Assembly (NCBI GenBank): GCA_963699165.1
Contig: OY969413.1
Span: forward strand, 468,562-532,561
Reading direction: 5' to 3'
Length of the DNA: 64,000 bases
Origin: Candidatus Kaiserbacteria bacterium
GTDB taxonomy: Bacteria > Patescibacteriota > Minisyncoccia > Phycocordibacterales > Phycocordibacteraceae
Part shown: piece after piece, positions 12,757 to 36,999 of the stretch
Position numbering within the stretch: position 1 is the stretch's first letter
Layout: every line of letters begins with the position of its first letter
Notes under the pieces: model-generated
The model's database searches: none
Told to the model about the DNA's origin: nothing
The model's input: only the letters and a program-made list of their open reading frames with translations
Made by a program: the position numbers and the translations under genes

Positions 12757-12930
12757 AAAAATACCCGAAAGTTCGGTGTCCCTTCGCCCTATCTAGCTTT
12801 TCTAAAATCGTGCTGCGTAATAATGGCTACAAACAAGGCTCTCGGGTCTGTCCGATACAAAAGTCTTCGGGCGGTGGCATGGGGATCCGAACTGTCAGCA
12901 TAGTACCGATAAAAAGTACTGAGACATGGC
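12757..12930. repeat. direct-repeat copy 1 (about 90% identical to 23128-23300), ending with att-like core CATAGTACCGATAAAAAGTACT
   Basis: Direct alignment of the two regions; contains AGTAC-N9-GTACT inverted half-sites at 12902-12920. Confidence 0.7.
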
Positions 12931-13082
12931 TTAAAATATAAGTTTCCCTATAATCGAATATTCTAGAACTTTGGTTCGAATCCCCGACAGTTTTTTCCAA
13001 TGGGTAGTTTCATTCTCACAACAGAGTGATATGACAAACTCTCCCATCGTGGGAGAGTTTGTCCGTAGAGCTCAAAGAGAGA

Positions 13083-13856: not shown

Positions 13857-13952
13857 ATGTATGGTAATGCTAATATGATTCGTGATAATAATTGACCCTC
13901 TACATTCTTTAACGAATGAACTCCGAAAGTGTGACACGAACTACTTTGTTCC

Positions 13953-14339: not shown

Positions 14340-14430
14340 ATGTATTTCACGATACGTTAAGTTTTTAAAAGATTCCCGATTTGCAACCCCATCCTAGAAT
14401 TATACATTGAAACTTTCAGCGAATGGGCGT

Positions 14431-14937: not shown

Positions 14938-15503
14938 ATGGTACTTGATACAGACTCCTCTTTCATCATACTCCTGAGTATGCGCAGACCCCGAGATTGC
15001 AACTGCCGAACGGCGACCTCACTCTTCCCCAGTATGGTTGCAATTTCAGAGGACGAAAGCCCATCAATGAACCGCAGCACGAGTGCATCCTGCTGATCCT
15101 GTGGGAGCTTGGCAATCTTCTGCCTGAGCGACCTACCATCATCCTTCATTGCAGCCATGGCCTCGGCGTTCTCAGAATCATCCGGTATACCCTCGAAGAA
15201 TTCATCGTCTGCGCGCACCGTCTTTTTCTTACGATAATGATCGATGATGCAGTTGCGAGCGACCGTATAAAAGAACGCGAGCGGAGATTTCCCTGATGAG
15301 ACATACCTTGGAAATGACTCATACGCCTTGAGGAACGATTCCTGTGTCAGATCCGCAGCATCGGACTCATCGGAGACACGGAAGTATATATAGCGATACG
15401 GCGGCGTGAAATATGCCTCATACAGCACTGTAAAAGCCTCGGATTCACCGAGTCGCGCGCGACGAATCAGGTCCTCGACATTTTCCGGGTCGATTTTCTT
15501 CAT
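14934..15503 (-). CDS. RNA polymerase ECF-type sigma-70 family factor
   Basis: Region 2 (YRYIYFRVSDESDAADLTQESFLKAY) and region 4 (LSSSEIATILGKSEVAVRQLQSRGLRILR) signatures. Confidence 0.85.
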   Translation of the reverse strand: MKKIDPENVEDLIRRARLGESEAFTVLYEAYFTPPYRYIYFRVSDESDAADLTQESFLKAYESFPRYVSSGKSPLAFFYTVARNCIIDHYRKKKTVRADDEFFEGIPDDSENAEAMAAMKDDGRSLRQKIAKLPQDQQDALVLRFIDGLSSSEIATILGKSEVAVRQLQSRGLRILRSMMKEESVSSTI

Positions 15504-15685
15504 GGTCTATGAGTATAACGGAATACCGGGAATTTTGTGACAATCGCGATTAATAGCACATTTGAGAGCACCCTTACGATGTCTGATGTCCATAAAAGCG
15601 CTACAAACTCAAATGGCTCAAATCCCTGAGCGGTCTCTAGATTTTCCCGAGAAGCGTGATATAACCGGTGCTTAAAATATGGCTC

Positions 15686-15709
15686 GGCATAGCACCGATA
15701 AAAACTACT
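15686..15709. other. att-like core site copy 2 (CATAGCACCGATAAAAACTACT), immediately outside inverted repeat IR-A
   Basis: Alignment with 12895-12920 and 23334-23357; flanking TAAAATAT box is shared with the copy at 23312. Confidence 0.5.
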
Positions 15710-15711
15710 AC

Positions 15712-15912
15712 GGGCGGTGTGTATTGAACGAAGTTCGAATGTATTTTGAATTGAATCCTGATGACCAATGATGCGCGCCTCGGACACGCTCGCGGACTCG
15801 CGTGTGCAAAAACCAAAAAATTTCCTTACATTTTTCCCGCGCCTCCTCCCCCCACCCCTCCGCCGCGAAGCGGAAAAAGAAATGGAAAGGAAATTTTTGG
15901 TTTTGCTTCGCC
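15712..15912. repeat. IR-A: 201-bp perfect inverted repeat (partner 17592-17792)
   Basis: Reverse complement of 17592-17792 is identical base for base; contains a polypyrimidine tract CCTCCTCCCCCCACCCCTCC. Confidence 0.9.
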
Positions 15913-16122
15913 GTTTCAGTCTCCGAAAAGAGCAATCTTATTTTAACATTTTTGTTTGCTCTTTTCTCCACCCTCACGGCGACCGAGGCGCTTCCTCTCC
16001 GCGTTTAGTGGTAGCTCTAGGGTTCGTGGCTTCGTTCGCTGGTCGTGGTAACTCATAAAGCGGATTGTGCATGGCACAAACAAATCTGTTTGTGCTTGCC
16101 CCGCCCGCCCTGTGCGCGCACA

Positions 16123-16163
16123 AATCCCCGCCGTTTTTAGGAGATATTATAAAACGGCGGGGA
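16123..16163. terminator. bidirectional stem-loop downstream of the Fic gene
   Basis: ATCCCCGCCGTTTT-N13-AAAACGGCGGGGAT perfect 14-bp stem. Confidence 0.5.
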
Positions 16164-16171
16164 TTGCTCCC

Positions 16172-17275
16172 TTACTTGCGAAAAACACTTTTGATAGCAA
16201 CATCTTCTCCTTCCTTAGTTTTCATTTTGTGATTTTCTGGATTCGCAAAAATATCAATCATGCTTTCAATAAACTTCGTTTTTACTTCTTTGTGAATTTC
16301 AATCAATCGGCGGGCGTCGTCTTCGGTAAGATTAGGCATAAGTTCTTCGGCATCAATCCCAGCAATTTTTTTGCCAACATCTTCGGGCACGACGCCCCGC
16401 CTTTCATCAAGTGGTTGTTTTACCTGATATTGATATTTTTGCAAATCAGTTTTTTCACTAAGAAATTTTGAAAGCACAATACCTCTAAAAGAAAAATTAT
16501 TTACATCGCCTTCGCCGAGGACTTTCTCGGCTAAAGTTGCTTCTTCGGGCGATAATTTTCCTTTTACGGCTTCCGACAAAAAACCAACACCAGAAGCGGA
16601 GGCAACATATATACTTCCATTTTCTTGAAGAAAATTATCGCCTAAAATTTCTTTGGCGACTTCACGATTTATGTAATAGTACGCACTATTAGCGTCCAAG
16701 ACTTTCTCCGCGAAAACATCTCGTCCTTTTCCAGTTCCACCATGACCCTCTTTGTCGTGATCTAAAAGTTCAGAAAGTTTTTCCTCTGTAAGTTCCTTGC
16801 CGTCCTCGGAAATTATTTCGTGAAGTAATCTTCCTGTTCTTCCGTTTCCGTCAGAATATGGATGTATGGCTTGAAGTGCGTAGTAAGTTAAAAGCGCGCG
16901 GTCTTCGTTATCTGGTATTTGTTTGAGTGCATCAAAACTTTCTCTCATCAAGCCGTCTTTCTGCTCGGCCGCTGGTGGGAGATATGAAATATCTCCCATA
17001 ATGCCAAAAGAAACTTCAACACCACTTCCGTCTACCGCACGCTTCTTTATCGGTACTTCGCGCAAGATTCCATTTAAACGAGTGAGATAATTTGTATAGT
17101 CTTCGTAAGAAAGTTTTTGAAGCCACTCATCAAACTGCTCGTCAGATTTTCTAACATCCAAAAATTTTGTGCGGTCCAAAAACTCAAAAACTTTCTTACC
17201 AGTTTCAAGTTTTTCCTCCACGGGTTCTTGTTTTTCTTGACGAGGAGTAGGTTGTGGGAATGATTCCATGCTCAT
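16172..17275 (-). CDS. Fic-family protein (AMPylation-type FIDO domain)
   Basis: Fic motif HPYSDGNGRTGRLL. Confidence 0.85.
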   Translation of the reverse strand: MSMESFPQPTPRQEKQEPVEEKLETGKKVFEFLDRTKFLDVRKSDEQFDEWLQKLSYEDYTNYLTRLNGILREVPIKKRAVDGSGVEVSFGIMGDISYLPPAAEQKDGLMRESFDALKQIPDNEDRALLTYYALQAIHPYSDGNGRTGRLLHEIISEDGKELTEEKLSELLDHDKEGHGGTGKGRDVFAEKVLDANSAYYYINREVAKEILGDNFLQENGSIYVASASGVGFLSEAVKGKLSPEEATLAEKVLGEGDVNNFSFRGIVLSKFLSEKTDLQKYQYQVKQPLDERRGVVPEDVGKKIAGIDAEELMPNLTEDDARRLIEIHKEVKTKFIESMIDIFANPENHKMKTKEGEDVAIKSVFRK

Positions 17276-17300
17276 AAATGTATTTTATCAGTTTTAATAA

Positions 17301-17513
17301 TTATTTCAAAAGTTCATCGCTCGCAACTCCTAACGCTTGAGCGATTTTTTCAATAGTAGAAAGTGTCGGGTTGCCCTTGCCAGCCTCGATATTACTCATT
17401 TGAGCGCGATCAAATCCGAGAGCACGACAAATGTCGCCTTGCGACATTTTCTTCCGCTCCCGTATGCGTTTGATGTTTTTTCCAAGCTTTATTGACGAAG
17501 TTTTCATATTCAC
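17301..17513 (-). CDS. XRE-family HTH transcriptional regulator (Cro/C1 type)
   Basis: 70 aa; LGKNIKRIRERKKMSQGDICRALGFDRAQMSNIEAGKGNPTLSTIEKIAQAL. Confidence 0.8.
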   Translation of the reverse strand: MNMKTSSIKLGKNIKRIRERKKMSQGDICRALGFDRAQMSNIEAGKGNPTLSTIEKIAQALGVASDELLK

Positions 17514-17591
17514 AGCTTGTATTCTAGCAGTTTGTTGTGTCCTATATCAATAATGTGATATATTACAATAGATGATGAATGATTTTATAAC

Positions 17592-17792
17592 GGCGAAGCA
17601 AAACCAAAAATTTCCTTTCCATTTCTTTTTCCGCTTCGCGGCGGAGGGGTGGGGGGAGGAGGCGCGGGAAAAATGTAAGGAAATTTTTTGGTTTTTGCAC
17701 ACGCGAGTCCGCGAGCGTGTCCGAGGCGCGCATCATTGGTCATCAGGATTCAATTCAAAATACATTCGAACTTCGTTCAATACACACCGCCA
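17592..17792. repeat. IR-A': inverted partner of 15712-15912
   Basis: Perfect reverse-complement identity. Confidence 0.9.
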
Positions 17793-17910
17793 AAATTCGG
17801 AATCAGAAGAAACGGACAAAGCGGGGTCGCGCCGAAGGCGCGACACTAATGCATTCCCCCCGCCGAATCCAGAATCCAAAAGGGTTTTCCACGCTCCGCG
17901 TGGCTCGTCG
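17793..17910. repeat. IR-B: 118-bp perfect inverted repeat (partner 19341-19458), directly abutting IR-A'
   Basis: Reverse complement identical to 19341-19458. Confidence 0.9.
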
Positions 17911-17927
17911 TTTGCCAATACAATTCT

Positions 17928-19583
17928 ATGAATAATCAAACCAAAAAGTTTTTCATATATACTCGCAAGTCTACGGACGACAAAGACAGACAAGTCCGCA
18001 GTATTTCTGACCAACTTTCAGAGTTAAAGGAGTTAGCGTTGAAAGAACAACTGGAAGTGGTAGATGTCTTTGTCGAAAAGCAGACCGCCAAAATACCAGG
18101 TCGCCCTGTGTTTAATGAAATGATAGAGCGTATGGAAAAAGGCGAAGCGTCTGGTATTTTGGCGTGGCATCCCGATAGACTTGCGAGAAACTCGGTAGAT
18201 GGAGGAAAAATCATCTACCTCGTTGATACTGGCGTAATCGTAGAGATGAAATTTCCAACTTTTTGGTTTGATCCGACACCGCAAGGGAAATTCATGCTCT
18301 CAATCGCTTTTTCGCAATCCAAGTATTATGTGGATAATTTAAGCGAGAACATTAAGCGCGGACATAGAAACAAAGTGAAGGAAGGAATATGGCCTCAAAT
18401 GTCTCCGATTGGATATGTGAACGAGAAAGGAAAAGGTATCGTGCCACATCCCGAGCTTGCTCCACTTGTCCGTAAGACATTTGAGGCATATTCAACTGGA
18501 AACTTCACTTTGCGGGAAGTCCGCGACAAATTTAATGGTCTTGGATTGAAGCGAAAAAGCGGTAGAGAGCTTGCGGTGTCGAATTATCAAAAACTTCTCA
18601 AAAATCCTATTTACACTGGTCTAATGAGGTATAACGGAGAGATTTTTGAGGGCAAGCACGAACCGATTATTTCAAAGAAACTTTTTGATACAGTACAAGA
18701 AGTGATGAGCCGAAAATCTAAACCGCATAGCAAAGGCTTGAAGCCATATATCTATCGCGGATTTTTCCGTTGTGGAGAGTGTGGTTGTTTCATTACCACC
18801 GAGCAACAAAAAGGTCATAACTATCTCCGCTGTACCAAACGGAAAAATCCTTGCTCACAGAAATATGTTCGCGAGGAGCTCATCACTTCTCAAATTCAAG
18901 AAGAAATCAAAAAAGTTTCTTTGCCTCTCGATTGGACGGAATGGATGATTGCCGAAAATGCAAAAGATCGGCAATCGGAAGTCCAGTCGAGTGAGATTTT
19001 TTCTCAAAAAATTCAAAATGAAATTTCTCTTTTGGATTCAAAAATAGAGAAGCTGATGAGTGCCTACCTCGAAAGTGCGTTGTCACTTGAAGAATATCGC
19101 GAAGCTAAAAACAAGTTGGTTAACCAAAATCAGCTTCTCAAAGAGAAATTAATAGCTTTTGAGAAAAAATCTCATAATCGGTTCGAACTTACCGAAAAGT
19201 TTTTGAAATACAATATGGAATTGGCAAACGACCGAACAAATGAGGAAAATACTCATTTGTTCAAAAAAGTCGGTTCGAACTTTCAAATTAAGGATCGAAC
19301 CGTACTTTTTGAGCCACGCGGAGCGTGGAAAACCCTTTTGGATTCTGGATTCGGCGGGGGGAATGCATTAGTGTCGCGCCTTCGGCGCGACCCCGCTTTG
19401 TCCGTTTCTTCTGATTCCGAATTTTGGCGGAGGCGAAGAGATACGAACCCGACGGGTCGCACCTTCGCCCTATGGCTTACATCCTCAGTATTTTATTTCT
19501 GCTGCTCGGTTCGAATCTCGGCGGGGGTTCCATGTCATGCCTCATGGTTAGGTGATAAGAGCTACTCGGGACGGTGGACGTAA
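17928..19583 (+). CDS. large serine recombinase (resolvase domain, recombinase domain, zinc ribbon)
   Basis: N-terminus YTRKSTDDKDRQVRSISDQ (catalytic Ser region), CGECGCF zinc ribbon, C-terminal coiled-coil; the frame continues into IR-B', so the true stop may be earlier. Confidence 0.85.
   Translation: MNNQTKKFFIYTRKSTDDKDRQVRSISDQLSELKELALKEQLEVVDVFVEKQTAKIPGRPVFNEMIERMEKGEASGILAWHPDRLARNSVDGGKIIYLVDTGVIVEMKFPTFWFDPTPQGKFMLSIAFSQSKYYVDNLSENIKRGHRNKVKEGIWPQMSPIGYVNEKGKGIVPHPELAPLVRKTFEAYSTGNFTLREVRDKFNGLGLKRKSGRELAVSNYQKLLKNPIYTGLMRYNGEIFEGKHEPIISKKLFDTVQEVMSRKSKPHSKGLKPYIYRGFFRCGECGCFITTEQQKGHNYLRCTKRKNPCSQKYVREELITSQIQEEIKKVSLPLDWTEWMIAENAKDRQSEVQSSEIFSQKIQNEISLLDSKIEKLMSAYLESALSLEEYREAKNKLVNQNQLLKEKLIAFEKKSHNRFELTEKFLKYNMELANDRTNEENTHLFKKVGSNFQIKDRTVLFEPRGAWKTLLDSGFGGGNALVSRLRRDPALSVSSDSEFWRRRRDTNPTGRTFALWLTSSVFYFCCSVRISAGVPCHASWLGDKSYSGRWT
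19341..19458. repeat. IR-B': inverted partner of 17793-17910, overlapping the 3' end of the recombinase ORF
   Basis: Perfect reverse-complement identity. Confidence 0.9.
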
Positions 19584-25511: not shown

Positions 25512-27704
25512 ATGAATCCGGGCGATCCTATCGAGAAGCATTTCCCGCGACTGAAGCCCGACCAGCAGCAGGCGCTTCGCAAGCTCGGCATACGGACGAT
25601 TCGCGACCTGCTCTATCATTTTCCTGCGCGCTATGAAAATGCGGGACCGACCGGAACCATCGCGGGCGCGACTAAGGGCGGAACGGTCACATTGTATGGA
25701 ACCGTGCGCAAACCGGACATCCGCAAAACATGGAAAACAAGGCGACCGATTGCGGAAGCGTGGCTCGAGGACGCGTCCGGCAAAATCAAAATGATGTGGT
25801 TTAGCCAGCCGTACATCGCGAAAAGTTTGCACGACGGCATGGTGGTGAAAGTGAGCGGACGCGTCGCGGGCGAAGGCGCGAAGGCGTATCTCGCGAATCC
25901 CGAAATCGATAAAACGCCGATTAACCCGGAAGAAATTCACGATTCGCTTTTTGCGGCCGCAACGGCGCCGGACGATAAACAGCTGTATCCGATTTATCCC
26001 GAAAGCCACGGCGTTTCGTCGCTCTGGTTTTTGCACGCGCTTAAAAAAGTGTTCGAGGCGCATGCGCACGAAAAGCTCGATGACCCGATTCCTGCGGATA
26101 TTTTGGAACGATACAAATTGCCGGCGCTTTCTTCCGCGCTTGTATTCATCCATGCACCTCGGCGGCTCACGGATGCGGAAGCGGCGCGCAAACGATTTGC
26201 ATTTGAGGAAGTGTTTGCTCTTCAAATCGTGATGCAACAGCGCCGCCGCGCGCTTTTGAAAGAAGAGGCATTGCCGGTTGCGGTAAACAGAAAAGCACTC
26301 GCCGACTTTGTGGCGTCGTTCCCCTTCCCCGCGACGGACGCGCAAACACGCGCCATCGAAACAATCGTCGGCGATTTTGAAAAAACGCATCCGATGTTGC
26401 GGCTTCTTGAGGGCGATGTCGGAAGCGGAAAGACCGCGGTCGCGGCGGCAACCGCGTATTTGGTCGCAACCTCGCTCCCGAAAGGCCGCATCGCGGGAAC
26501 GCTTCAAGTCGCATACCTATGCCCGACCGAAATTCTCGCGAAACAGCATTTCTCCACGTTCGTTTCATATTTTAAAGACCACCCGATACCGATTGGGCTC
26601 ATTACCGGAAGCGAATGCCGAAAATTTCCCTCGCGCGTCCGCTACGAAGAATCCGCGAAACTCTCGAAGGCCGTGTTCAAGAAAATGGTCGCGAACGGCG
26701 AGATACCGATTGTCATCGGCACGCATGCGCTCATCGAAAAATCGCTTTCGTTTAAATATTTCGCGTACGCCATCATCGATGAACAGCACCGCTTCGGCAT
26801 CGTGCATCGTTCCGCACTGCTCCGGAAAAGTGCTACTGGTATGATATATCATACCAGTAGCACTCAGCCGCATTTGCTTTCGATGACGGCGACGCCGATT
26901 CCCCGCACACTTGCACTCACCATTTACGGCGACCTCGACCTTTCAGTGCTCGACGAGATGCCGGTTGGCCGCAAACCGGTTATCACGGAAGTTCTCGGAC
27001 CCGAGAAACGCGAGAAAGCGTATGAGCGCGTTCGCGCCGAACTTGCGCTCGGCCATCAGGCATATGTGATTTGCCCGCGCATCGACGAACCCGACCCCGC
27101 AAAAGAAATGGCGCTTCAGGCAAAATCGGTCAAAGCTGAAGCGGCTCGGCTAGCGAAGTTCGTTTTCCCGGATGCAACCATCGGCATTCTGCACAGCAAG
27201 ATGAAGACATCGGAAAAAGAAGAAACGATGACATCATTCGAAAAAGGCGAAATCGACATCCTCGTAGCAACCTCTGTCGTGGAAGTCGGCGTGAATGTGC
27301 CGAATGCAACGGCGATTCTCATTGAAGGCGCCGAACGATTCGGCCTCGCGCAATTGCACCAGCTTCGCGGCCGCGTGATTCGCTCGACGCACCAGTCATA
27401 CTGCTTCGCACTGCCAGAATCGTTCGGCGAAGCAACGCGCGACCGCATGAAAGCTTTTTCAACTGCAAAAAACGGTTTCGAACTCGCCGAATACGACCTC
27501 GCACTTCGTGGCGCCGGCGAACTCACCGGCGGGCGGCAGTGGGGCGTTTCTGACATCGCGATGGAAGCGTTAAAAAACATAAAGCTGGTCGAAGCGGCGC
27601 GCACCGAAGCCGCCCGTCTCGTCGCGCGAGACCCCGAGCTTCGCACCGAACCCGAACTCGCCCACCGCGCGCACGCGGCCGAAAAAGAAATGCATTTGGA
27701 ATAA
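25512..27704 (+). CDS. recG: ATP-dependent DNA helicase RecG
   Basis: 730 aa; Walker A GDVGSGKT; DEQHRFGI box; helicase C motifs; N-terminal wedge region. Confidence 0.85.
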   Translation: MNPGDPIEKHFPRLKPDQQQALRKLGIRTIRDLLYHFPARYENAGPTGTIAGATKGGTVTLYGTVRKPDIRKTWKTRRPIAEAWLEDASGKIKMMWFSQPYIAKSLHDGMVVKVSGRVAGEGAKAYLANPEIDKTPINPEEIHDSLFAAATAPDDKQLYPIYPESHGVSSLWFLHALKKVFEAHAHEKLDDPIPADILERYKLPALSSALVFIHAPRRLTDAEAARKRFAFEEVFALQIVMQQRRRALLKEEALPVAVNRKALADFVASFPFPATDAQTRAIETIVGDFEKTHPMLRLLEGDVGSGKTAVAAATAYLVATSLPKGRIAGTLQVAYLCPTEILAKQHFSTFVSYFKDHPIPIGLITGSECRKFPSRVRYEESAKLSKAVFKKMVANGEIPIVIGTHALIEKSLSFKYFAYAIIDEQHRFGIVHRSALLRKSATGMIYHTSSTQPHLLSMTATPIPRTLALTIYGDLDLSVLDEMPVGRKPVITEVLGPEKREKAYERVRAELALGHQAYVICPRIDEPDPAKEMALQAKSVKAEAARLAKFVFPDATIGILHSKMKTSEKEETMTSFEKGEIDILVATSVVEVGVNVPNATAILIEGAERFGLAQLHQLRGRVIRSTHQSYCFALPESFGEATRDRMKAFSTAKNGFELAEYDLALRGAGELTGGRQWGVSDIAMEALKNIKLVEAARTEAARLVARDPELRTEPELAHRAHAAEKEMHLE
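26829..26864. repeat. 36-bp perfect palindrome embedded in frame in recG
   Basis: AGTGCTACTGGTATGATA|TATCATACCAGTAGCACT; encodes SATGMIYHTSST inserted between the DEQHRFG box and the MTATPIPRTLA motif. Confidence 0.8.
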
Positions 27705-30073: not shown

Positions 30074-32014
30074 TTATTGCACGGCGGGAACGGCGCGCGG
30101 CGAGACCATCGCGTCCTCTTCCCGTTTCTTCGGCGTAATGCCGTTTGCAATGAGAATTTTTTCAAAATCCTCGCGTTCGATGGTCTCCTTTTCGGTCAAT
30201 TCTTTTGCGATGGCATCGAGCGCCTTCCTATGTTCCGAGATGACGGCAATCGCGCGTGCTTTCGCTCCTTCGATAATTCGCGTGACTTCGGCATCGATTT
30301 CGGCCGCCACATGTTCGGAATACGGTTCGTTCCCGAGCTGGCGGTCGCCGAATGCAATCGGTCCGAGTTTTTCGCTCATGCCGTACCGCACGACCATGTC
30401 GCGCGCAATCGCGGTGATGACCATCAAATCGTTGCTCGGCCCCGTCGTAACGTCGTCAAAAAGCATTTCTTCGGCAACATAGCCGCCCAAGGTAGCGGCG
30501 ATGTCATCCAAAAATTGTTTTCGCGATTGCATCTTTTTGTCTTCAAACGGAAGTTTGAGCGTATAGCCCGCCGCGCGGCCGCGGCTGATAATGGAAATTT
30601 TGTGAACCGGATCGGCATTCGGCAAAATAGACGATACGAGCGCATGGCCGGCCTCGTGATATGCCGTCAATTCCTTTTCTTTTTTCGAAAGCAAATGGCT
30701 CTTGCGCTCCGGACCGAGCATCACCTTTTCAATCGAGCGGATGAGGTCGTATTGCGTTACCTCTTTCCGGTTTTCGCGCGCCGCAAGAATCGCGCCTTCG
30801 TTCATGAGCGAATACAGCTCCGCGCCCGAGAAGCCCGGCGTGCGCTCGGCGACGACGGAAAGCACGACGTCCGGACCGAGCGGTTTCTTGCGCGCGTGAA
30901 TCTTCAATATCTCCTCGCGGTCGCGGCGGTCGGGCAAATCGATGGTCACGCGGCGGTCAAAGCGTCCCGGGCGAAGCAGCGCCGGGTCGAGCACATCCGG
31001 ACGATTCGTCGCCGCCATCACCACGACTTTCTCGGTCGGCTCGAAACCGTCCATCTCGACGAGGATTTGATTGAGCGTCTGCTCGCGTTCGTCGTTGCCG
31101 CCGCCCACGCCGGTGCCGCGCACGCGTCCGACCGCATCGATTTCATCCACGAAAATAATCGACGGCGATGCTTTCTTCGCAAGCAGGAACAAATCGCGCA
31201 CGCGCGACGCGCCGACCCCGACAAACATTTCGACAAACTCGGAACCGGAAATCGAGAAGAAAGGCACGCCTGCTTCGCCCGCAACCGCGCGCGCGAGAAG
31301 CGTCTTCCCCGTTCCCGGCGCGCCCATCAAAATGATTCCTTTCGGAATGCGTGCGCCGATGTCGAGGAATTTTTTCGGGCTTTTCAAAAAGTCGACGATT
31401 TCTAGCAGTTCCTCTTTTGCTTCGCGCGCGCCCGCCACGTCGGCAAACGTAACGCGCTGCGTCAGGTCGGCCGGGTCGATGACACGCGCTTTCGATTGCC
31501 CGAAACTAAATGCCTGCATGCCCGCACCACGCACCTGGCGCGACAGAAACCAAAAGAGGAATGCGATGAATAAAAGCGGAATCAGTATCGGCGCAAGATT
31601 CAAAAACCAAAATTGAAATCCCGATTGCCCCTGAACGGTTATGGCGACTTTTGTCAGTTCGGCCGGCGTTACGCCGTAGGTCGCGAGCGTTTCCGGTAAT
31701 CCGGATGCCGGATCTTTGCGCGAGGTTTTCGTCGAGTTATCGGCATACGTGACATCAAGCGAGTCGCCGTTAACGGTGATTGAAGTAATCTTCCCCGCGG
31801 CAACGTCGGCCGCGACGGTCGAAAGCGGCACATCGGTCGACGGCTTCATGAGACCAACCACGAGCGAATACGCGCTCATAAGGAGCAGGAAGATGAGCAC
31901 CGTTGTGATGAGATTGCTCAAAAACGACGGGCCGTTCATGTTCGAAAACCAACCGCGTTTCGGCGGCGGAAGCGGTGTTTTTTTGTTCGGTTTCTTCGGA
32001 GAGACGTTCGGCAT
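30074..32014 (-). CDS. ftsH: ATP-dependent zinc metalloprotease FtsH
   Basis: Two N-terminal TMs, AAA Walker A GPPGTGKT, SRH, HEAGHAL zinc motif. Confidence 0.9.
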
Positions 32015-32040
32015 AACAAAATGTTATTATACTACTTCAT

Positions 32041-32484
32041 ATGACATTAGTCGAATATAAGAAAGCCCTGCTCCGATTTGCGCCGCTTGAGACGTTTGCG
32101 GCGGGTCTTGAGCTGTACGGCACCGAAGTGAAAGCGCTGCGCGGCAAGCTCGGTTCCCTCGACGGTTCCCGCGTCGTGGTGCGCGGCGGCGAGGCCTTTA
32201 TTGTCGGCATGACCATCCCTCCATATCAGCCGGCGAACACCGCAAAGGACTACGACCCGGAGCGTTCGCGGCGCCTTTTGCTCGCGAAAAAGGAGATTGC
32301 AGAGCTCGCGGATGCCGAATCGAAAAAGGGCTTGACAATTGTGCCTCTTGAGGTATATACTAGCAGCAAGCTCATAAAAGCCCGCATCGCCATCGTCCGC
32401 GGCAAGGGCAAAACCGACCGGCGAGAAGATTTGAAAAAACGAGATGCGGAGCGTGAGACAGGTCGAGTTTTGAGAAATCGGTAG
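32041..32484 (+). CDS. smpB: SsrA-binding protein SmpB
   Basis: LYGTEVKALR, the RRLLLAKKE pattern, ~150 aa. Confidence 0.9.
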   Translation: MTLVEYKKALLRFAPLETFAAGLELYGTEVKALRGKLGSLDGSRVVVRGGEAFIVGMTIPPYQPANTAKDYDPERSRRLLLAKKEIAELADAESKKGLTIVPLEVYTSSKLIKARIAIVRGKGKTDRREDLKKRDAERETGRVLRNR

Positions 32485-32502
32485 TTCCCCTAAAGCATGG
32501 CT

Positions 32503-32757
32503 TATACGGTTTACATCCTTTACAATCGCGGGGATAGAGGGATGTACGTCGGTTGCACAAGCAATATCGAAAAGCGTTTGTAGCGGCACGGAAATGGGTA
32601 TGTTCCGGCAACAGCAGACAGAAGACCGCTCGACATTGTTCATTCCGAACAATTTGAATCGAAAGCGGATGCCTTCAATCGCGAGAGGTTCCTCAAGAGT
32701 CTTTGGGGAGCGCGCGAAAAAAGGAAGATATTGCTAAGATGGATTCAGGACGAGGCA
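32503..32757 (+). pseudogene. GIY-YIG nuclease (UPF0213/YhbQ-like) with an in-frame TAG
   Basis: Own translation MAYTVYILYNRGDRGMYVGCTSNIEKRL*RHGNGYVPATADRRPLDIVHSEQFESKADAFNRERFLKSLWGAREKRKILL; the stop falls at the usual (E/Q)H position. Confidence 0.6.
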
Positions 32758-32862
32758 GAAAAAGTAAAAGATGCCTAGTCCGGTTCACGGTGTGTTTCTG
32801 GCTAAAACATTTTTGCAGCAAAAATGTTCGCCCGAACACATCTTGCAGCAAGATGTGTTTTA

Positions 32863-33267
32863 GGGGGGTGACCGGCTTTGACGGTCTGTACTTTGAAAGA
32901 CGTGCGACGCAGTGCACTCCAATCAACACTAAAAACTGTTGGAAAACAAACTTGCCAAGAACACTCTTGCAAGCGTGAAGTCGCCGTACTTCGGTATGCG
33001 TGATTTCGCGTTCGCGTACGCGGCAGCCTAACGGCTCCTCGCCTGCGCGACGTCTGCCCTCCCGGGTTTCTACAGCCGGAGGAGCGGGCGGAATTATCTG
33101 AAGAATCGATGTCCGGTCTCCCGTCCGGCGCATTTAAATAAGGGATCGGGCAGGAATGGTTTCGTCTGCGTTCCTCGCATCCTGCCTAAGACACTAACGC
33201 TGACTATGCGTCGTAGAAGCGCTTTCATAGCCGGATTCGGACGGGGGTTCGATTCTCCCCACCTCCA
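32863..33267 (+). ncRNA. ssrA: tmRNA (ssrA)
   Basis: 5' GGGGGUGACCGGCUUUGACGG; 3' tRNA-like GGACGGGGGTTCGATTCTCCCCACCTCCA; acceptor pairing GGGGGUG/CACCUCC with a G3:U70 Ala identity pair; internal tag ORF ending FAYAAA*. Confidence 0.8.
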
Positions 33268-33277
33268 CTCGATAAAC

Positions 33278-33307
33278 AAACGCCACCTTCAGAAGGTGGC
33301 GTTTGCG
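33278..33307 (+). terminator. rho-independent-type hairpin after ssrA
   Basis: AAACGCCACCTTCAGAAGGTGGCGTTTG. Confidence 0.7.
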
Positions 33308-33319
33308 TTTAACAGAGTG

Positions 33320-33790
33320 GAGATGGAACGAGACGCCTGCGCGTCTCGTGTGGAGAATCGAAAGGCGCAGCGATGTTTTGTCAGCAGACAAAACCGCGAG
33401 CCGGGGTCGAGCAAATTCGCGAGTGACGACGAGCGAATTATGCGTGACCGACTCTCCCCGCTTAGCGATTCGTGACTTCGACTCCCGTTTTTCATATAAA
33501 CCGCGAGCCGGGGTCGCGAAAATTTCGAGCGGCGGCGAGAAATTATTCGTGACCAATTCTCCCCGCCCCAATTTGTCCGGAGCATTTTACTTAGCGATTC
33601 GTGACTTCGACTCCCTGTCTGCACGCCTCACGTGGAGAATCGAATGGCGGAGCGATGTTTTGTCAGCAGACAAAACCGCGAGCCGGGGTCGAGCAAATTC
33701 GCGAGTGGCGACGAGCGAATTATGCGTGACCTGTTATAAGAAAAGTAGCAGGTTCCAACGAATGTTTAGGCATAAATCCGGCCGCTAACT
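33320..33790. repeat. hairpin-rich repeat family A (two ~105-nt units at 33349-33452 and 33641-33744, plus GTGAC...CTCCCC subrepeats)
   Basis: Units are ~98% identical; internal hairpins GTTTTGTC-AGCA-GACAAAAC and AATTCGC/GCGAATT; begins with the reverse complement of a tmRNA-3'-like TTCGATTCTCCAC. Confidence 0.6.
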
Positions 33791-33897
33791 CACATCTCAA
33801 ATATTGGATCAGGGCAACAGAGGGTGGATGTTATTGAACTCAAACGGTTTGCGAGGATATATAATAAAGAGGTTTCTTACTTCATCAAATAATTACT

Positions 33898-34533
33898 ATG
33901 AAAAAAATCACAACAATTCTTGCCGCTCTATTTTTTGTGGTTCCATCTGTATCATTTGCGGCGGCTCTCACTCCACAGCAATCAAACAGTCTCATCGCGG
34001 TCGTACAAGCATCCCCAGGTACACCTGCAAACGCTTTCGTTTCCCTCATAACCGCTTTCTCAAATATATCAGTCACCCAAGCTACCAGTCTCATCACAGT
34101 TATTCAAGCAGCCCCTGGCGTACCTGCAAGTGCCTTTGTTAGCCTTTTAACTTCTTTTACCGCAGACACGACCGCAACACAAACAGTTACGCCAGTAACA
34201 AACCCCATCTCGACTACTCAACCGGTGACATCAACAGCGACTTGGCATCAGGCCTTCACATTTTCTGGTAGCGGCACATCGCTTACAAATTCTCCCCAAT
34301 TCACGTTGCATGGGAAAGAACAACGTATTGACTGGAGTTGTTCCGTAGTCGATGCATCACTCGACATTAGTAATTTTGGTGCCAATATTCAGGCGACACA
34401 AGATTATTCTGGTGACAGTATCGCGAGTGATGAAACCTGTCCGACCTCTAAAACAACGTACGAGTACGACTTGTCTCCTGGACAGTACTATCTTCAGCTT
34501 GGTCCAACCAATGCTAGTTCTAATAGACATTAA
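33898..34533 (+). CDS. secreted protein with internal tandem repeats
   Basis: Signal peptide MKKITTILAALFFVVPSVSFA; duplicated segment QASPGTPANAFVSLITAFS / QAAPGVPASAFVSLLTSFT. Confidence 0.55.
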   Translation: MKKITTILAALFFVVPSVSFAAALTPQQSNSLIAVVQASPGTPANAFVSLITAFSNISVTQATSLITVIQAAPGVPASAFVSLLTSFTADTTATQTVTPVTNPISTTQPVTSTATWHQAFTFSGSGTSLTNSPQFTLHGKEQRIDWSCSVVDASLDISNFGANIQATQDYSGDSIASDETCPTSKTTYEYDLSPGQYYLQLGPTNASSNRH

Positions 34534-34589
34534 CGATTTCCAAAAAATAATGCGGGCCGCCCTTTGGGGCGGCTTTCGCATTATTTTGT

Positions 34590-34960
34590 GGAGGTGAGCA
34601 AGACACCTGCGTGTCTTGCGTGGGAGAATCGAATGCCGGAGCCATGTGCGAAGCACAGCGAGGCGGGGTCGAGAGCACTTAGCACTTTTGCGAATACTTG
34701 GAGCAAAATGCTTAGTGACTCGTGACCAACTCCCCACCTATATACAAACCGCAGTCCTTTAGGAGTCGCGCAAATTCGCGAGCGAACCCAGTAGGTCATT
34801 CTGCTGAATGAGACGAGCGAATTATGCGTGACCGACTCTCACCGCTTAGCGATTCGTGACTTCGACTCCCCTACTGAAATGTATTGGAGCAAAATGCTTA
34901 GTGACTCGTGACCAATTCTCCCCGCTTCAGCTCTTGGAGCAATCCGATTAGCGATTCTCT
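34590..34960. repeat. hairpin-rich repeat family A, second cluster
   Basis: Shares GAGAATCGAATGCCGGAGC, GACGAGCGAATTATGCGTGACCGACTCTC[A/C]CCGCTTAGCGATTCGTGACTTCGACTCCC and GCTTAGTGACTCGTGACCAA(T/C)TC motifs with 33320-33790. Confidence 0.55.
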
Positions 34961-34962
34961 GC

Positions 34963-35367
34963 TTGGACCCCCATTTCCAACGTCGCATTGCCATCTTCCC
35001 CAAAAAATGGTTCCATTCATTCGGTAGCAACTTTCACAAAGGAGTATCCGTGGCAACCCTGCAATCCGGACCCATTCCATGCACAGAAATCATCGAGCGC
35101 GGCGAAGACGAGATTGTTCTAGAACCGGGTCATATTCGTATCAAAATCCTCAGTTGGACACTGGCGGCCGTTCAGGTCGAAATTCATTGTTCGAGTGGGA
35201 GGATAGGGCGCACAATCCTCGCCGGAAAACGTCTTGTCGTAGCCCCAAACAGGCCGTGCCTCGTGGTAAATTGCCTCGGCACGTTATCCGGACCGCGCCT
35301 TGTGCTGACACCTGAGCGGTCAGAATCTCAAGTGGGTCGATTGGTCGTTGAACGGTATAGCGAATAA
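34963..35367 (+). CDS. hypothetical protein
   Basis: ORF only. Confidence 0.3.
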   Translation: MDPHFQRRIAIFPKKWFHSFGSNFHKGVSVATLQSGPIPCTEIIERGEDEIVLEPGHIRIKILSWTLAAVQVEIHCSSGRIGRTILAGKRLVVAPNRPCLVVNCLGTLSGPRLVLTPERSESQVGRLVVERYSE

Positions 35368-35384
35368 ACGACCAGCCCCGGACA

Positions 35385-35425
35385 TCAAACCCACCGAGCA
35401 CCGCGCTCCGTGGGTTTGATTTTTT
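35385..35425 (+). terminator. rho-independent terminator
   Basis: CAAACCCACCGAGCACCGCGCTCCGTGGGTTTGATTTTTTG. Confidence 0.65.
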
Positions 35426-35557
35426 GCGCCCGGGAAAGTTTGCATCCCTCTTCGCTTTTTAGAGATTTTGACTTCCTCCTCTTTTTCTCATACGCTAATC
35501 ACGCAACCAGCCGAAAAGGATGTGGTTGTAAGTTCGTTATGAAATGAAGGGGAAATT

Positions 35558-36295
35558 ATGGGAGTCGTCATACCCCGCCATGGGGAATCTCCTCTCGAAG
35601 TGCTCGCGCGGTGCGGCGCATACTATTCCTGTCCGAAGGACGCGCAAGGCAAACGACGGGGTCCTCTCGTGGGAGTCGTCGGGCGAGACCGACACAATCG
35701 CCAGTATGTTGCAGAGAAGTACGTATACTTCCCGGCAGTGGAAACGAGCCCGCCGGCTGTGCGGCACTTCTCCGAACTGCTCGATAGAGAAATACACGCT
35801 CGGGGCTTCCAAGACGATATTACTTTTTGCGCCGTTCCTGCCGGTGGCATCGTTCTGGCCGCGACGTTGGCCGATATCCATGGATGTGCGTATTTATCGG
35901 CCGAGAAGCGAGCAGTCGCGGTTGCGACTGCATCCTCGCGAGAAATTACGACGATTGTCTTTGGACGGCATCGACCTCGGCTCGGCGAAAAAATCATACT
36001 CATCGATGATGTCTGCAACAACTTCAGCACCACCGGTGCCATGATAGAACTCGTCGAACGCTATGGCGCAACCGTTGTCGGCATTGCGTGTGCGTTCAAC
36101 CGCTCCGTTGATGTTGAGTCGCATTTTGTGACGGTTTACGGGCTCGACTTGCCCATCATGACGGTCATCCGGCAACCGATTCGACAATACTCGCAAGATG
36201 ACCCGTTTGTGGCCGGCGATGTCCAAAAGGGAAACGTCGTATGGAATCCGAAAGCGGAATGGCCTTTACTGGCTGCGGCAATGGCCGCGGCATAA
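35558..36295 (+). CDS. phosphoribosyltransferase (type I PRTase fold) family protein
   Basis: PRPP-binding motif ILIDDVCNNFSTTGAMIE. Confidence 0.6.
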   Translation: MGVVIPRHGESPLEVLARCGAYYSCPKDAQGKRRGPLVGVVGRDRHNRQYVAEKYVYFPAVETSPPAVRHFSELLDREIHARGFQDDITFCAVPAGGIVLAATLADIHGCAYLSAEKRAVAVATASSREITTIVFGRHRPRLGEKIILIDDVCNNFSTTGAMIELVERYGATVVGIACAFNRSVDVESHFVTVYGLDLPIMTVIRQPIRQYSQDDPFVAGDVQKGNVVWNPKAEWPLLAAAMAAA

Positions 36296-36435
36296 CGACA
36301 ACCTCCCGAATAGGAAGGGCCGCGACCGAAAGGGAGCGGCTTTTCGTTTGAATATCCGGCCATTATATGCATAATGGTTTGCGGAGCGACTTCGCGTCGC
36401 AAACTACTGTTCGTCATTGGGACCAAGGTGTGAAC

Positions 36436-36999
36436 ATGGAACTACCGCATAAATCATGGGTCGTGGGAGAACGGCTCCTTCAGCTCGGAATCGTCAGTAC
36501 GAGTACTAACGATATCCTCAAGCCGCCGACTGGCAAAGAGTTGTATCAGCTGGCATTGGCCATGTTGGACCGCTTTGGACTGCTCTACAAAGTCGAGCGG
36601 TTGCCTTCCCCTCGCCCGCGGGCAATTGTAAGCGTCTCCGAGTCGGATGATGAACTGGCCGGACAGCTTGCGCGAATACTCAAAATGAGAATTGTTCGAG
36701 CGAACGACGCAATTTATCACGACGCGGAACGGATTTTGCTCGTGAACTTCTTTCTGACCTCCGGCGCTTCGGTTTTGCATAGAATCGAGAAAAAACCGCC
36801 GGAAGTCGAAATCACTGCGATGTGGGTGGCAGTCGACCACGAAAAGGGCGACACCGAATTCCCATTTCCGGTTCAAGCGGCGCTGACCTTCTCTATGTTG
36901 CGCGAAATCGATGCGTGGCGAAAAGAGGAGGAGGAAAGACGGAAAAGAGAGATAGAGGAGATTCGGAAACGGGAAGCAGCGCAAATTCAAACCCGGTAG
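36436..36999 (+). CDS. hypothetical protein, degenerate PRTase-like, Glu/Arg/Lys-rich C-terminal tail
   Basis: ILLVNFFLTSGASV resembles a PRPP motif; start ambiguous (ORF from 36367). Confidence 0.4.
   Translation: MELPHKSWVVGERLLQLGIVSTSTNDILKPPTGKELYQLALAMLDRFGLLYKVERLPSPRPRAIVSVSESDDELAGQLARILKMRIVRANDAIYHDAERILLVNFFLTSGASVLHRIEKKPPEVEITAMWVAVDHEKGDTEFPFPVQAALTFSMLREIDAWRKEEEERRKREIEEIRKREAAQIQTR

Follow-up and report, generated by a model that had tools for sequence, protein, structure and literature searches.

Directly behind the tmRNA gene ssrA lies an array of repeats that is probably a decayed tandem pile-up of a small non-coding element targeting the 3′ ends of tRNA and tmRNA genes in Patescibacteria. 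Comparison of loci suggests that this element is mobile and non-autonomous. It is absent from every catalogue and paper searched: Rfam 15 yields tmRNA alone in region 31500-36500 of the window (the whole stretch of 64,000 nucleotides analyzed here), with all other matches far below threshold, it gives no family above 20 bits for the canonical unit of locus L012 scanned alone, and full-text literature searches turned up no account of the element.

The array behind ssrA

The array comprises three units and seven fragments that keep the unit 3′ end, placed on either side of the open reading frame (ORF) at 33898-34533. Below, T_L denotes the 3′ end of the target gene, X the palindrome that follows it, T′ the inverted copy of that end and T_R its direct copy.

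32864-33268, + strand: ssrA (tmRNA), the target gene, called by ARAGORN and by Rfam (RF00023, 88.5 bits)
33248-33268, + strand: T_L, the ssrA 3′ end from the T-loop, TTCGATTCTCCCCACCTCCAC, source of the element-flank copies
33269-33314, + strand: terminator-like palindrome X after ssrA, with perfect 14-nt arms (33277-33290 and 33292-33305)
33315-33326, + strand: acceptor part of T′, GAGTGGAGATGG, in sequence the reverse complement of the tmRNA end CCA(C/T)CTCCACTC
33330-33347, + strand: leader hairpin GAGACGC-CTGC-GCGTCTC, exactly at the acceptor/T-stem junction of T′
33350-33461, + strand: unit c1 (covariance model R1, 88.2 bits; fold -52.1 kcal/mol), with the T-arm part of T′, GTGGAGAATCGAA, at 33350-33362 and a three-way-junction core at 33363-33448
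33449-33461, + strand: T_R of c1, a decayed direct copy of the target end, CGACTCTCCCCGC
33462-33615, + strand: three 5′-truncated copies between c1 and c2, placed by repeat families and 3′ motif positions: fA 33462-33486, fB 33496-33566, fC 33577-33615
33616-33731, + strand: unit c2 (R1, 60.3 bits), beginning inside the leader hairpin loop
33898-34533, + strand: gene for a 211-aa protein with a signal-peptide-like N-terminus, between c2 and c3
34534-34596, + strand: terminator palindrome after the ORF, with arms 34539-34554 and 34577-34592 (inverted repeats)
34588-34596, + strand: acceptor part of T′, GTGGAGGTG, the reverse complement of CACCTCCAC
34598-34739, + strand: leader hairpin of c3 (34598-34619) and unit c3 (R1, 92.8 bits; fold -48.6 kcal/mol), with the T-part of T′ at 34622-34633, the core at 34634-34726 and a truncated T_R, CAACTCCCCACCT, at 34727-34739
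34748-34972, + strand: four further 5′-truncated copies, placed by repeat families, with an R1 partial match at 34762-34833: fD 34748-34845, fE 34846-34870, fF 34884-34925, fG 34934-34972

Palindrome X is the apex of a longer palindrome, 33256-33333, a 78-nt hairpin joining the tmRNA 3′ end to its inverted copy, and the layout seen after ssrA recurs in L003, L012, L015, L017, and L040. The arms 33248-33262 and 33348-33362 are 93% complementary over 15 nt, and the first-pass annotation, made from the sequence alone, was right that the units start with a reverse complement of tmRNA 3′-type sequence, which proves to be that of the T-loop and T-stem; the internal hairpins that it named are present in the units as well. 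Against shuffled sequences the predicted fold reaches a z of -4.7 for c1 and -4.4 for c3, and the + strand, which is the sense of the tRNA or tmRNA, folds better than its opposite.

Two repeats of about 105 nt do exist as annotated at first pass, but the partner copy starts at 33631 rather than 33641, and the identity put at 98% amounts to 93% over the 104-nt span, 94% over 113 nt (33337-33449 against 33619-33731) and 97% over the core columns of c1 and c2. The third unit is a divergent copy, with a core 43-45% identical to those of c1 and c2 and with compensatory changes in its hairpins. Subrepeats had also been placed on both sides of the ORF, and these lie far above chance, the subrepeat CGTGACYNAMTCYCCCC occurring 5 times against 0.14 expected, always on the + strand and within 33443-34923. 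What had been missed is that most of the subrepeats are 5′-truncated copies of the unit: the array holds nine matches to the 3′ motif, four to the middle motif and three to the 5′ motif (a fifth middle-motif match, at 52430, is unrelated to it). Fragments fA, fB, and fC keep the 3′ end ..CGTGAC with a T-like tail, and R1 matches 33462-33563 at 37 bits; c2 is cut right after CGTGACC and so carries no T_R. The 3′ end of fD together with fE repeats the 3′ end of c1 together with fA at 98% over 59 nt, and fG is the most decayed of the four fragments after c3.

A collapsed or misassembled repeat, the danger named beforehand, is contradicted by independent assemblies, in which the unique junctions are reproduced at 100%. 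The window is identical to contig JBAPNL010000114.1 of GCA_049279115.1, the independent Logan contig L051 reproduces the junction from ssrA to c1, and independent Logan contigs run from c2 through the ORF to c3 (33702-34727) at 100% identity. Short-read contigs break inside units, L051 ending in c1 and L139 starting in c2 and ending in c3. As judged from these sequence comparisons, the array region is not an assembly artefact.

We agree with the first reading in dismissing the ORF calls within the repeats as spurious and in accepting 33898-34533 as a real gene, its product having 157 homologues. No Pfam domain was found in this 211-aa protein. Three homologue contigs were looked up; none of these homologues lies next to units or tRNAs, for which reason we reject the ORF as a cassette cargo of the element, and two have large serine recombinase genes in their vicinity. 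We regard the ORF as probably either cargo unrelated to the repeats or the remnant of another mobile element.

Distribution, architecture and fold of the family

An exact three-anchor pattern search matched 47 loci, 40 of which contain the unit; the genomes concerned are mostly labelled Patescibacteria, Paceibacterota or Saccharibacteria. Covariance model R1 added further copies. All 58 copies found outside the window have a co-oriented tRNA or tmRNA gene 4-261 nt upstream, a placement for which only 4.9% of the strand positions in the copy-bearing loci qualify. The target genes belong to at least 13 kinds of tRNA/tmRNA; a single 8-kb locus can hold up to three units at different tRNA genes (e.g., L010), and the genome WY5.bin43 has four units across two loci. 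What the first-pass annotation missed is that the family spans the Patescibacteria and is bound to tRNA gene 3′ ends generally rather than to ssrA. Nor is the “tmRNA-like” start a fixed feature, being templated from whichever tRNA precedes the copy.

A full copy is ordered as target 3′ end, X, T′, core and T_R, after which the native trailer follows, and it adds about 190-250 bp directly behind the gene. T′ is an inverted copy of roughly the last 20 nt of the gene, from the T-loop to just past the discriminator, and is often split at the acceptor/T-stem junction by a hairpin of about 9 bp. This leader hairpin has about 30 homologues at the same fixed place, with a 4-nt loop (mostly CUGC) and many compensatory stem variants. 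The units are irregular and 110-160 nt long, have a three-way-junction core of about 90-110 nt, and have ends that read GGAGAATCGAA ... CGTGAC-CGATTC. T′ varies with its target (CGAGGATTCGAA vs. TTCGAATCCTCG for Trp; GGAGAGTTGAA vs. TTCAACTCTCC for a tmRNA variant), and in 37 of 44 cases it matches the gene copy more closely than it matches T_R, following the gene copy down to its trailer bases; the mature CCA end is not matched. T_R is an exact 18-27 nt repeat of the upstream gene 3′ end in 12 of 41 pattern-matched copies, the others having a shorter exact repeat or none. Over all, duplications are between 5 and 27 nt long, a range that fits neither a classical transposase nor a classical integrase. 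At L045 the insert lies between the copies of an 11-nt target duplication yet retains a Gly-type T′, giving a hybrid 3′ junction at a new target.

Units usually lie between two terminators and have no evident promoter, and no terminator separates tRNA from unit in L002, L010, L029, and L128. A simple promoter/terminator scan found no promoter, with counts at chance level and both obvious terminators missed. Clustering of the ORFs at about 40 loci revealed no conserved neighbor gene, the syntenic housekeeping neighbors varying in distance and strand; the inserts contain no ORF, and no recurrent recombinase, integrase or reverse transcriptase stands beside these loci, nor any recombinase or reverse transcriptase beside the window array.

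Covariance analysis across relatives, the check suggested at the outset, found that the core covaries. Both sides change in 23 of 27 core pairs, 90.4% of cells are paired as compared to 74.2% in shuffles, and covariation scores 0.450, where shuffles reach 0.143 and slid controls no more than 0.103. A single G.U pair recurs in 56 of 57 copies; setting this invariant pair aside, counts of G.U against A.C (19 vs. 11) give a mild signal for the strand. Conservation extends to the G.A-rich internal loops and to the hairpin tips, which resemble protein-binding sites. The covariation shows selection on a single-strand fold and is compatible with RNA and single-stranded DNA alike. By folding, T′ paired with T_R in one strand is predicted to form an acceptor/T-stem-like helix with a side arm, in which the core replaces the T-loop, and the folded copy may be viewed as a mimic of a tRNA minihelix. 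Deep covariation and a fixed tRNA-like geometry would equally suit a host-useful RNA.

Insertion, proposed mechanism and rival explanations

Close relatives offer clean empty sites, and the copies are therefore read as insertions of about 190-220 bp. L070 is 189 nt longer than L054 and shows a duplicated junction of 16 bp, beyond which the native trailer continues at 96% identity; L088 exceeds L114 by 219 nt. Among relatives whose SmpB is 75-85% identical, a unit follows ssrA in 3 of about 26 assessable loci. Cores from the Gly, Leu, and Trp genes of WY5.bin43 share 71-85% identity, as against a median of 43% and a 95th percentile of 65% between genomes, which we take as a sign of recent spread from one tRNA kind to another, and each of these copies has a flank set matching its own tRNA. 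All copies in the window array are decayed, truncated or tandem, and truncated copies also occur in L019, L007, and L042; the other loci taken together have 50 3′ motifs and 50 middle motifs, that is, no excess of 5′ truncation. Clean empty sites could in principle also reflect precise deletions between direct repeats. Mobility is read from comparative evidence only, with no transposase, integrase or reverse transcriptase linked to the copies. No free, circular or virus-borne form was found, and a phage attP was rejected as origin, a scan of viral contigs having given two matches in high-GC coding DNA with no tRNA nearby that were judged to be chance.

In the mechanism that we propose, homology to the tRNA 3′ end would anchor the spread, which would probably pass through a single-stranded intermediate, either an RNA co-transcribed with the tRNA and released by 3′ processing or a folded single-stranded DNA, on which an enzyme encoded elsewhere would act. 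T_R would be the displaced or duplicated target end, and T′ would stay in agreement with the gene through the T_L-X-T′ palindrome. In the window, repeated insertions together with duplications and 5′ truncations would have left the three units and seven fragments, with the secreted-protein gene as a passenger. A bolder version, which we advance tentatively and hold to be rather unlikely in full, is a protein-less mobile element riding tRNA biogenesis as a tRNA-trailer transcript that is excised by tRNA 3′ processing and copied back into tRNA/tmRNA 3′ ends. The T′:T_R helix, side hairpin and core would mimic the acceptor/T-arm and so be cut out, return would take place either through reverse transcription or in the form of a single folded strand, and pairing with the target from T-loop to 3′ end would serve as both address and primer, yielding the flanks of the new tRNA. 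Two other models were discarded. A hairpin-cap or snap-back model predicts a reverse complement of the native trailer left of T′, which L040 and L070 do not fit; a single crossover of a circle with the old T would create chimeric tRNAs and does not fit L045 (11-nt duplication, Gly-type T′).

The units could instead be host-useful genes for a tRNA-like non-coding RNA, a minihelix mimic freed by RNase P/Z-type release, whose protein-binding core might make it a decoy, a regulator or an adaptor for the neighboring tRNA and which would have spread by duplication and selection rather than by selfish mobility. We take this reading seriously yet doubt it. Covariation that persists over deep divergence speaks for it, as do the leader hairpin at the acceptor/T-stem junction in units of several tRNA kinds and of tmRNA, the invariant G.U pair, the better fold of the tRNA-sense strand, the resemblance of the conserved G.A-rich loops and hairpin tips to protein-binding sites, and the loci named above where a unit follows its tRNA without an intervening terminator. 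However, the units are patchy among close relatives (about 3 of 26 after ssrA), many copies are decayed, truncated or tandem, including all in the window, and the closer match of T′ to the gene copy than to T_R argues for templating at the DNA level rather than for selection on a T′:T_R helix. Moreover, the complement of the tmRNA end swaps G3.U70 for A-U, by which alanine identity is lost, and the simple scan, which missed both obvious terminators, found no promoter. The first-pass annotation had offered structured RNAs, a MITE-like element or attachment-site scars, and each was partly right: there is a conserved fold with strong covariation, there is inserted DNA at many tRNA/tmRNA genes, and the tmRNA 3′ end survives as decayed copies in the short CTCCCC-type tails.

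Classical integrase scars nevertheless find no support, given inserts of only about 200 bp with a conserved core and without a linked integrase, and we consider it very improbable that the copies are ordinary attachment sites of islands or prophages later deleted. A regenerated target with a displaced direct 3′ fragment is the textbook signature of tRNA/tmRNA integration (Islander, PMC4383910). Arrays of 3′ fragments do arise after repeated integration, and a large serine recombinase and an rve transposase are encoded elsewhere in the window. But the DNA in between is no set of random remnants, being instead a unit of about 110 nt that is conserved and covaries; inserts measure 189-219 nt with no integrase beside any of about 40 loci, at least 13 kinds of target each have matching inverted and direct flanks around cores that are 71-85% identical within a genome, and a model of attP identity needs chimeric tRNAs. 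Scarcely credible, finally, is an assembly artefact or a known RNA or array family (CRISPR, TIGR, riboswitch, ribozyme, pseudo-tRNA): repeats are prone to misassembly and contigs do break inside units, but the unique junctions agree between assemblies, and dozens of unrelated genomes share this architecture. Rfam yields no family at or above its gathering threshold, ARAGORN leaves the units without a tRNA call (in the window it calls tRNA-Ser, tRNA-Ile, and ssrA alone), and the TIGR layout was not seen. TIGR units are 36 nt long with spacers of about 9 nt and lie beside Tas genes (PMC12045711), so that TIGR arrays were rejected on unit size and architecture; no Nop, Tas or Cas neighbor was found at the loci. 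Ribozymes and riboswitches were rejected for want of an Rfam match and because, by eye, neither hammerhead nor group II domain V fits the covarying pairs. A tRNA or tRNA half on the minus strand was also dismissed: the D-loop-like GTCGGTCA and TTCGATTCTCC are suggestive, but the bases before TTCGATT are unpaired with the T-stem 3′ strand, so T-stem pairing is missing, and ARAGORN makes no call.

If the preferred reading of a mobile element is true, a widespread element of the ultra-small CPR/Patescibacteria colonizes tRNA/tmRNA 3′ ends without breaking the genes and adopts the sequence of each target in its two flanks, non-autonomous DNA would have a new way to a safe and universal landing site, and this may be a natural case of targeting by tRNA mimicry or by pairing with tRNA ends. 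Such an element would also account for broken contigs and for spurious ORFs called after tRNA genes in CPR genome bins, and the covariance model is available for annotating such elements. The three-way-junction core with its G.A-rich loops and invariant G.U is a candidate binding site for the enzyme. Were it a host RNA instead, a minihelix mimic paired with many tRNA genes would constitute a new RNA class.

Comparison with known systems

Like MITEs (e.g., Correia), the element is small, non-coding, multi-copy and patchy, has hairpin termini and no transposase of its own, and shows insertion polymorphism; fixed termini, a duplication of fixed length and a parent IS were not found. It differs from MITEs in that its termini are copies of the local target, in its strict placement at tRNA/tmRNA 3′ ends in one orientation, and in a fold kept across classes with no parent IS known. 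Rickettsia palindromic elements, another example of bacterial MITEs, also occur in an ssrA gene.

With Islander-type islands and prophages, which tyrosine integrases insert into tRNA/tmRNA genes, the element shares a target in the 3′ part of tRNA/tmRNA, a gene left intact, a displaced 3′ end copy marking the far boundary (a direct fragment in 12 of 41 copies) and tandem arrays at one gene. Unlike such islands, its insert of about 200 bp contains no integrase or other gene, it has an extra inverted copy and a folded core, and it uses at least 13 target kinds with matching flanks and duplications of 5-27 nt.

Dependence on a tRNA 3′ end is also known from retroelements, namely in LTR primer-binding sites, the Mauriceville retroplasmid and target-primed insertion of SINEs/LINEs. 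A 19-21-nt stretch of the element is complementary to the tRNA 3′ end and reaches the T-loop in the manner of a primer-binding site; a tRNA-like 3′ end and one hybrid 3′ junction at a new target (L045) are shared as well, and the 5′-truncated copies with intact 3′ ends and the variable duplications (the window, L019, L042) may be. In contrast to retroelements, no reverse transcriptase is linked, T′ matches gene plus trailer rather than the mature CCA end, and outside the window 5′ truncation shows no overall excess.

Compared to the tRNA-like domain of tmRNA and to tRNA acceptor/T-arm minihelices, the predicted fold has the same coaxial acceptor-like and T-stem-like helices made from an authentic tRNA 3′ strand, with an arm at the junction. 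It differs in that a two-hairpin core takes the place of the T-loop, the D-loop/T-loop elbow is missing and the helix passes the discriminator, and tmRNA-linked copies lose aminoacylation identity.

The remaining comparison is with integron attC sites and the attP(+) of CTX phage. The element lacks the RYYYAAC/GTTRRRY boxes of attC, an intI and a dif-like site; on inspection the unit ends have no R/L boxes, and no integrase neighbors the loci. Its core is conserved in sequence, whereas that of attC/attP(+) is variable, and its arms copy a tRNA 3′ end. The systems agree in arrays by one fixed site and in compensatory change, and they would agree in relying on a single strand of about 60-150 nt whose inverted arms rebuild a target-like duplex and in an enzyme supplied in trans. 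The predicted integrated layout of attC/attP(+), namely target end, short cargo, arm, loop, arm, and native flank, matches that of the element.

A folded element behind tRNA and tmRNA genes

The diverged repeat copies of the window have three anchors in common (GGAGAATCGAA, GGGGTCG and CGTGAC), and a scan of one genome per species for this anchor pattern, a wider search of the kind that the first-pass annotation had named as a check, matched 47 loci, 40 of which carry the unit. These 40 loci are mostly found in genomes labelled Yonath-, Kaiser-, Lloyd-, Taylorbacteria, Paceibacterota, Saccharibacteria or Patescibacteria group, and the remaining seven are chance-like matches in unrelated phyla. 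Viral contigs scanned in this way yielded just two matches, both in coding DNA and attributable to chance. A covariance model built on 40 units recovered additional copies without exact anchors. Apart from the tmRNA itself, neither window positions 31500-36500 nor a canonical unit scanned singly matches any family of Rfam 15, and a full-text literature search found no relevant description of the element; the family is phylum-wide and apparently undescribed, and the window copies are degenerate members of it.

Each of the 58 copies found beyond the window has a co-oriented tRNA or tmRNA gene 4-261 nt (mostly 45-85 nt) upstream, a placement for which only 4.9% of strand positions in those loci would qualify by chance; the linkage is absolute within this sample. 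The genes concerned are those for tRNA-Gly (32 copies), Arg, Leu, His, Pro, Lys, Cys, Glu, Trp, Val, Ile and Tyr, and tmRNA (5 copies). Units stand behind several neighbouring tRNA genes in three loci (L010, L041, L042) and in tandem in three (L040, L042, L001). The 5′ segment seen as GGAGAATCGAA is variable, being the complement of the local T-loop and T-stem: it reads CGAGGATTCGAA 3′ of a tRNA-Trp bearing TTCGAATCCTCG, AGAGAGAATCGAA 3′ of tRNA-His, and GGAGAGTTGAA 3′ of tmRNAs bearing TTCAACTCTCC. The anatomy of a complete copy was derived from loci L003, L012, L015, L017, L040, L070, L088 and others.

Parts of a complete copy, in order
1. T_L: 3′ end of the tRNA or tmRNA gene
2. X: terminator palindrome (A-rich / GC-hairpin / T-rich)
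3. T′: T_L reverse-complemented, starting at position 54 (T-loop) and ending a few bases past the discriminator
4. Leader hairpin, in most copies: ~9 bp with a 4-nt loop (mostly CUGC), exactly between the acceptor and T-stem parts of T′
5. Core: consensus GAA-aGnCGgAg-[hairpin]-cGAGncGGGGUCGnG-[long hairpin]-cGUGAC
6. T_R: direct copy of the gene 3′ end, usually starting at C56
7. Original trailer and terminator of the gene

In L012, the T_L-X-T′ palindrome has arms that match without error for 29 nt and continue for another 9 nt. In 12 of the 41 pattern-hit copies T_R repeats 18-27 nt exactly, the others having a shorter exact repeat or none, and T′ is closer to the gene copy and trailer than to T_R in 37 of 44 cases. 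In seven loci (L008, L025, L030, L032, L038, L088, L103) the closing helix carries a further small hairpin, such as GGCG-UAA-CCGCC or GUG-UAAU-CAC, set into its 3′ strand after CGAAA and before GGTTCTCC; this hairpin is another optional module of the family. Variant units, mostly 3′ of tRNA-Arg, occur at L128 6300-6441 (behind a tRNA gene), L029 4150-4244, L027 7307-7420 and L026 2598-2738; their flanks are very short (e.g., TTGTGCC...CACAA, the last ~5 nt of the tRNA plus trailer), or they directly follow the tRNA without T′, so that the extent of target copying is variable.

The window array and its neighbours

Two repeat fields, 33315-33731 and 34588-34972, lie immediately 3′ of ssrA on either side of an ORF for a secreted-type protein, as had been proposed. 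The repeat search gave 13 direct-repeat families, including a 113-nt pair 94% identical and a 59-nt pair 98% identical, and a short tail motif has five occurrences against 0.14 expected. The earlier claim that units start with the reverse complement of a tmRNA-3′-like sequence also holds, each full unit opening with the T-loop and T-stem of the tmRNA in reverse complement (inverted repeat I4). The second unit, put at 33641, starts 10 nt earlier: the actual counterpart of 33349-33452 begins at 33631, and the 98% identity given for the two becomes 93% over the 33349-33452 span and 97% in the core columns.

Features of the array and of a mobile-element stretch in the window
10385-11164, IS3-like rve transposase
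11226-11990, TdeIII-type restriction enzyme
16175-17275, Fic protein
17928-19580, large serine recombinase
32499-32777 (+), GIY-YIG-like ORF between smpB and ssrA
32864-33268, ssrA (tmRNA; ARAGORN, and Rfam at 88.5 bits)
33350-33461 (+), unit c1: T′ (acceptor part upstream, 33315-33326), leader hairpin (33330-33347) and core, with a decayed T_R of only 13 nt
from 33616 (+), unit c2: begins in the leader-hairpin loop and ends directly after CGTGACC
33898-34533 (+), ORF for the secreted-type protein
from 34598 (+), unit c3: divergent, T_R of 13 nt

All three units are degenerate. Another seven pieces each retain the 3′ end (..CGTGAC and a T-like tail) and differ in their internal start points, and motif counts in the array are 9 for the 3′, 4 for the middle and 3 for the 5′ part, all on the + strand. 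Segmental duplication has also taken place here: c2 is nearly identical to c1, and the stretch made of the 3′ end of c1 and fragment fA equals the one made of the 3′ end of fD and fE.

No protein conserved alongside the units was found; the genes near the array, with ftsH and smpB upstream of ssrA, encode only SmpB, FtsH, a phosphoribosyltransferase and hypothetical proteins. The rve transposase and serine recombinase lie 14-23 kb away and show no link to the array; the mobile-element and defence genes of 10385-19580 stand in and around a low-GC stretch (0.41-0.42), in which no units or tRNA-end repeats were detected. ORF 33898-34533 is a genuine gene belonging to a family of secreted hypothetical proteins that spans the CPR; it has no Pfam domain and contains an internal 99-nt tandem duplication (80 nt aligned, 71%). 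Among three inspected homologue contigs, none has the gene beside a unit or tRNA, two have it beside large serine recombinase and HTH_XRE genes, and the third near phage P4 cII-like and peptidase M78 (ImmA-like) genes, which suggests a family borne by mobile elements. We read the ORF as unrelated cargo or a remnant landed in the array.

The GIY-YIG-like ORF (MAYTVYILYNRGDRGMYVGCTSNIEKRL*RHGNGY..., with an in-frame TAG) is absent from the relative L015. In the relatives L096, L126, L127 and L114, ORFs starting MHFVY/MYFVY, GIY-YIG-like by eye, lie just 3′ of ssrA, and in the first three, long inverted repeats (TCGACTCGC...GCGAGTCGA) enclose the tmRNA trailer upstream of the ORF. The tag peptide that ARAGORN predicts for the window tmRNA, VGKQTCQEHSCKREVAVLRYA*, looks atypical. 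ARAGORN made no tmRNA call in over 50 of 80 SmpB-linked loci (L053-L132), some too short to include ssrA, and missed the L015 tmRNA that Rfam found; existing models may fit CPR tmRNAs poorly. At 26829-26864, in or beside a recG-like gene region, a BLAST of the contig against itself gave a reverse-strand hit that is a perfect inverted self-match of 36 nt.

Insertion and conserved fold

Among 80 metagenomic loci whose SmpB is 75-85% identical to that of the window, the covariance model placed a unit 3′ of ssrA in just three, L070, L088 and L103, and about 23 others with sufficient downstream sequence are empty. L070 and the empty L054 align across the tmRNA; L070 then carries 189 additional nt, after which the native trailer of L054 resumes at 96% identity, and the 16 bp that overlap at the junction are the duplicated tmRNA end. 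Relative to L114, L088 is longer by 219 nt. The copies are inserted DNA. Downstream of T_R in L103 lies sequence that matches the X found 3′ of the tmRNA in L088, which suggests that new copies enter beside the gene and push older ones outward. In genome WY5.bin43, cores at tRNA-Gly, tRNA-Leu and tRNA-Trp are 71-85% identical (between-genome median 43%, 95th percentile 65%) and all three have flanks matching their own tRNA, so the core has moved recently between tRNA kinds and takes its flanks from the target. L045, at a tmRNA, shows an intermediate state: an 11-nt duplication of the tmRNA end lies on both sides of the insert, T_R is hybrid, and T′ is still of a decayed tRNA-Gly type. In several "empty" ssrA loci of relatives (L092, L128, L116, L085, L102) the terminator-palindrome arms extend 3-6 nt into the tmRNA 3′ end (CCAC...GTGG), and in L085 and L102 a second module, CTCCAC + terminator + GTGGAG, is present without a core; these palindromes may be precursors or remnants of T_L-X-T′.

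RNAalifold on 40 units gave two helices with compensatory changes at 12 of 19 pairs. In the covariance analysis, another check named beforehand, 23 of 27 pairs change on both sides among 57 model-aligned copies, paired cells reach 90.4% (74.2% in shuffles), and the covariation score is 0.450 against 0.143 shuffled and at most 0.103 with partners slid, on an alignment that is fitted to the model and favours structure. The structure agrees with the MAFFT-based RNAalifold result and with obvious swaps (GGC/GCC, GCC/GGC, GAC/GUC, AGC/GCU), and the fold is under selection. One G.U pair, joining the G of GGGGUCG to the U of CGUGAC, occurs in 56 of 57 copies, 17 of them chosen independently of the anchors; together with the fold energies of the window units, which lie far below those of shuffles and are somewhat lower on the + strand, it indicates that the folded strand (RNA or ssDNA) is the one with tRNA sense. 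The CGGAG/CGAG internal loop of helix P2 is conserved and hairpin tips are frequently GAGC-N3-GCGA(A/G); loop and tips are G.A-rich and could be candidate protein-binding sites.

Mechanism and alternatives

The element is shown to be targeted to tRNA and tmRNA genes, protein-less and structurally constrained, with target-derived flanks, and our confidence is high in this description and low to moderate in the mechanism. The address would be pairing or homology with the segment from T-loop to 3′ end, the sole sequence block common in form to all tRNAs and tmRNA. The T-loop core TCGA/TTCGAA, palindromic and located exactly at the T′ end and T_R start, could on both counts be a natural strand-switch point. 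T_R would be the target end, duplicated or displaced, and T′ would be carried or re-templated, its complementarity to the gene then being maintained through the palindrome T_L-X-T′.

We lean towards a 3′-anchored copying process, given the truncation polarity and the varying length of the duplication. That the unit is a tRNA-like RNA useful to its host is the serious alternative, and one compatible with mobility. Specific tests contradict classical integrase scars and known RNA or array families, and likewise an assembly artefact: the window sequence equals contig JBAPNL010000114.1 of GCA_049279115.1, and the collapsed or misassembled repeat that had been raised as a possible refutation is countered by independent Logan contigs, which reproduce the unique array junctions at 100% identity and break inside repeats. 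The finding is real, and of more interest than the first-pass annotation proposed. In the mobile-element reading, the folded strand would display an acceptor/T-stem-like helix with a side arm, which would suit tRNA-processing enzymes if the intermediate is the 3′ trailer RNA of a tRNA, and would equally suit a recombinase, for which the folded strand can be likened to attC or CTX attP, both of which fold as ssDNA.
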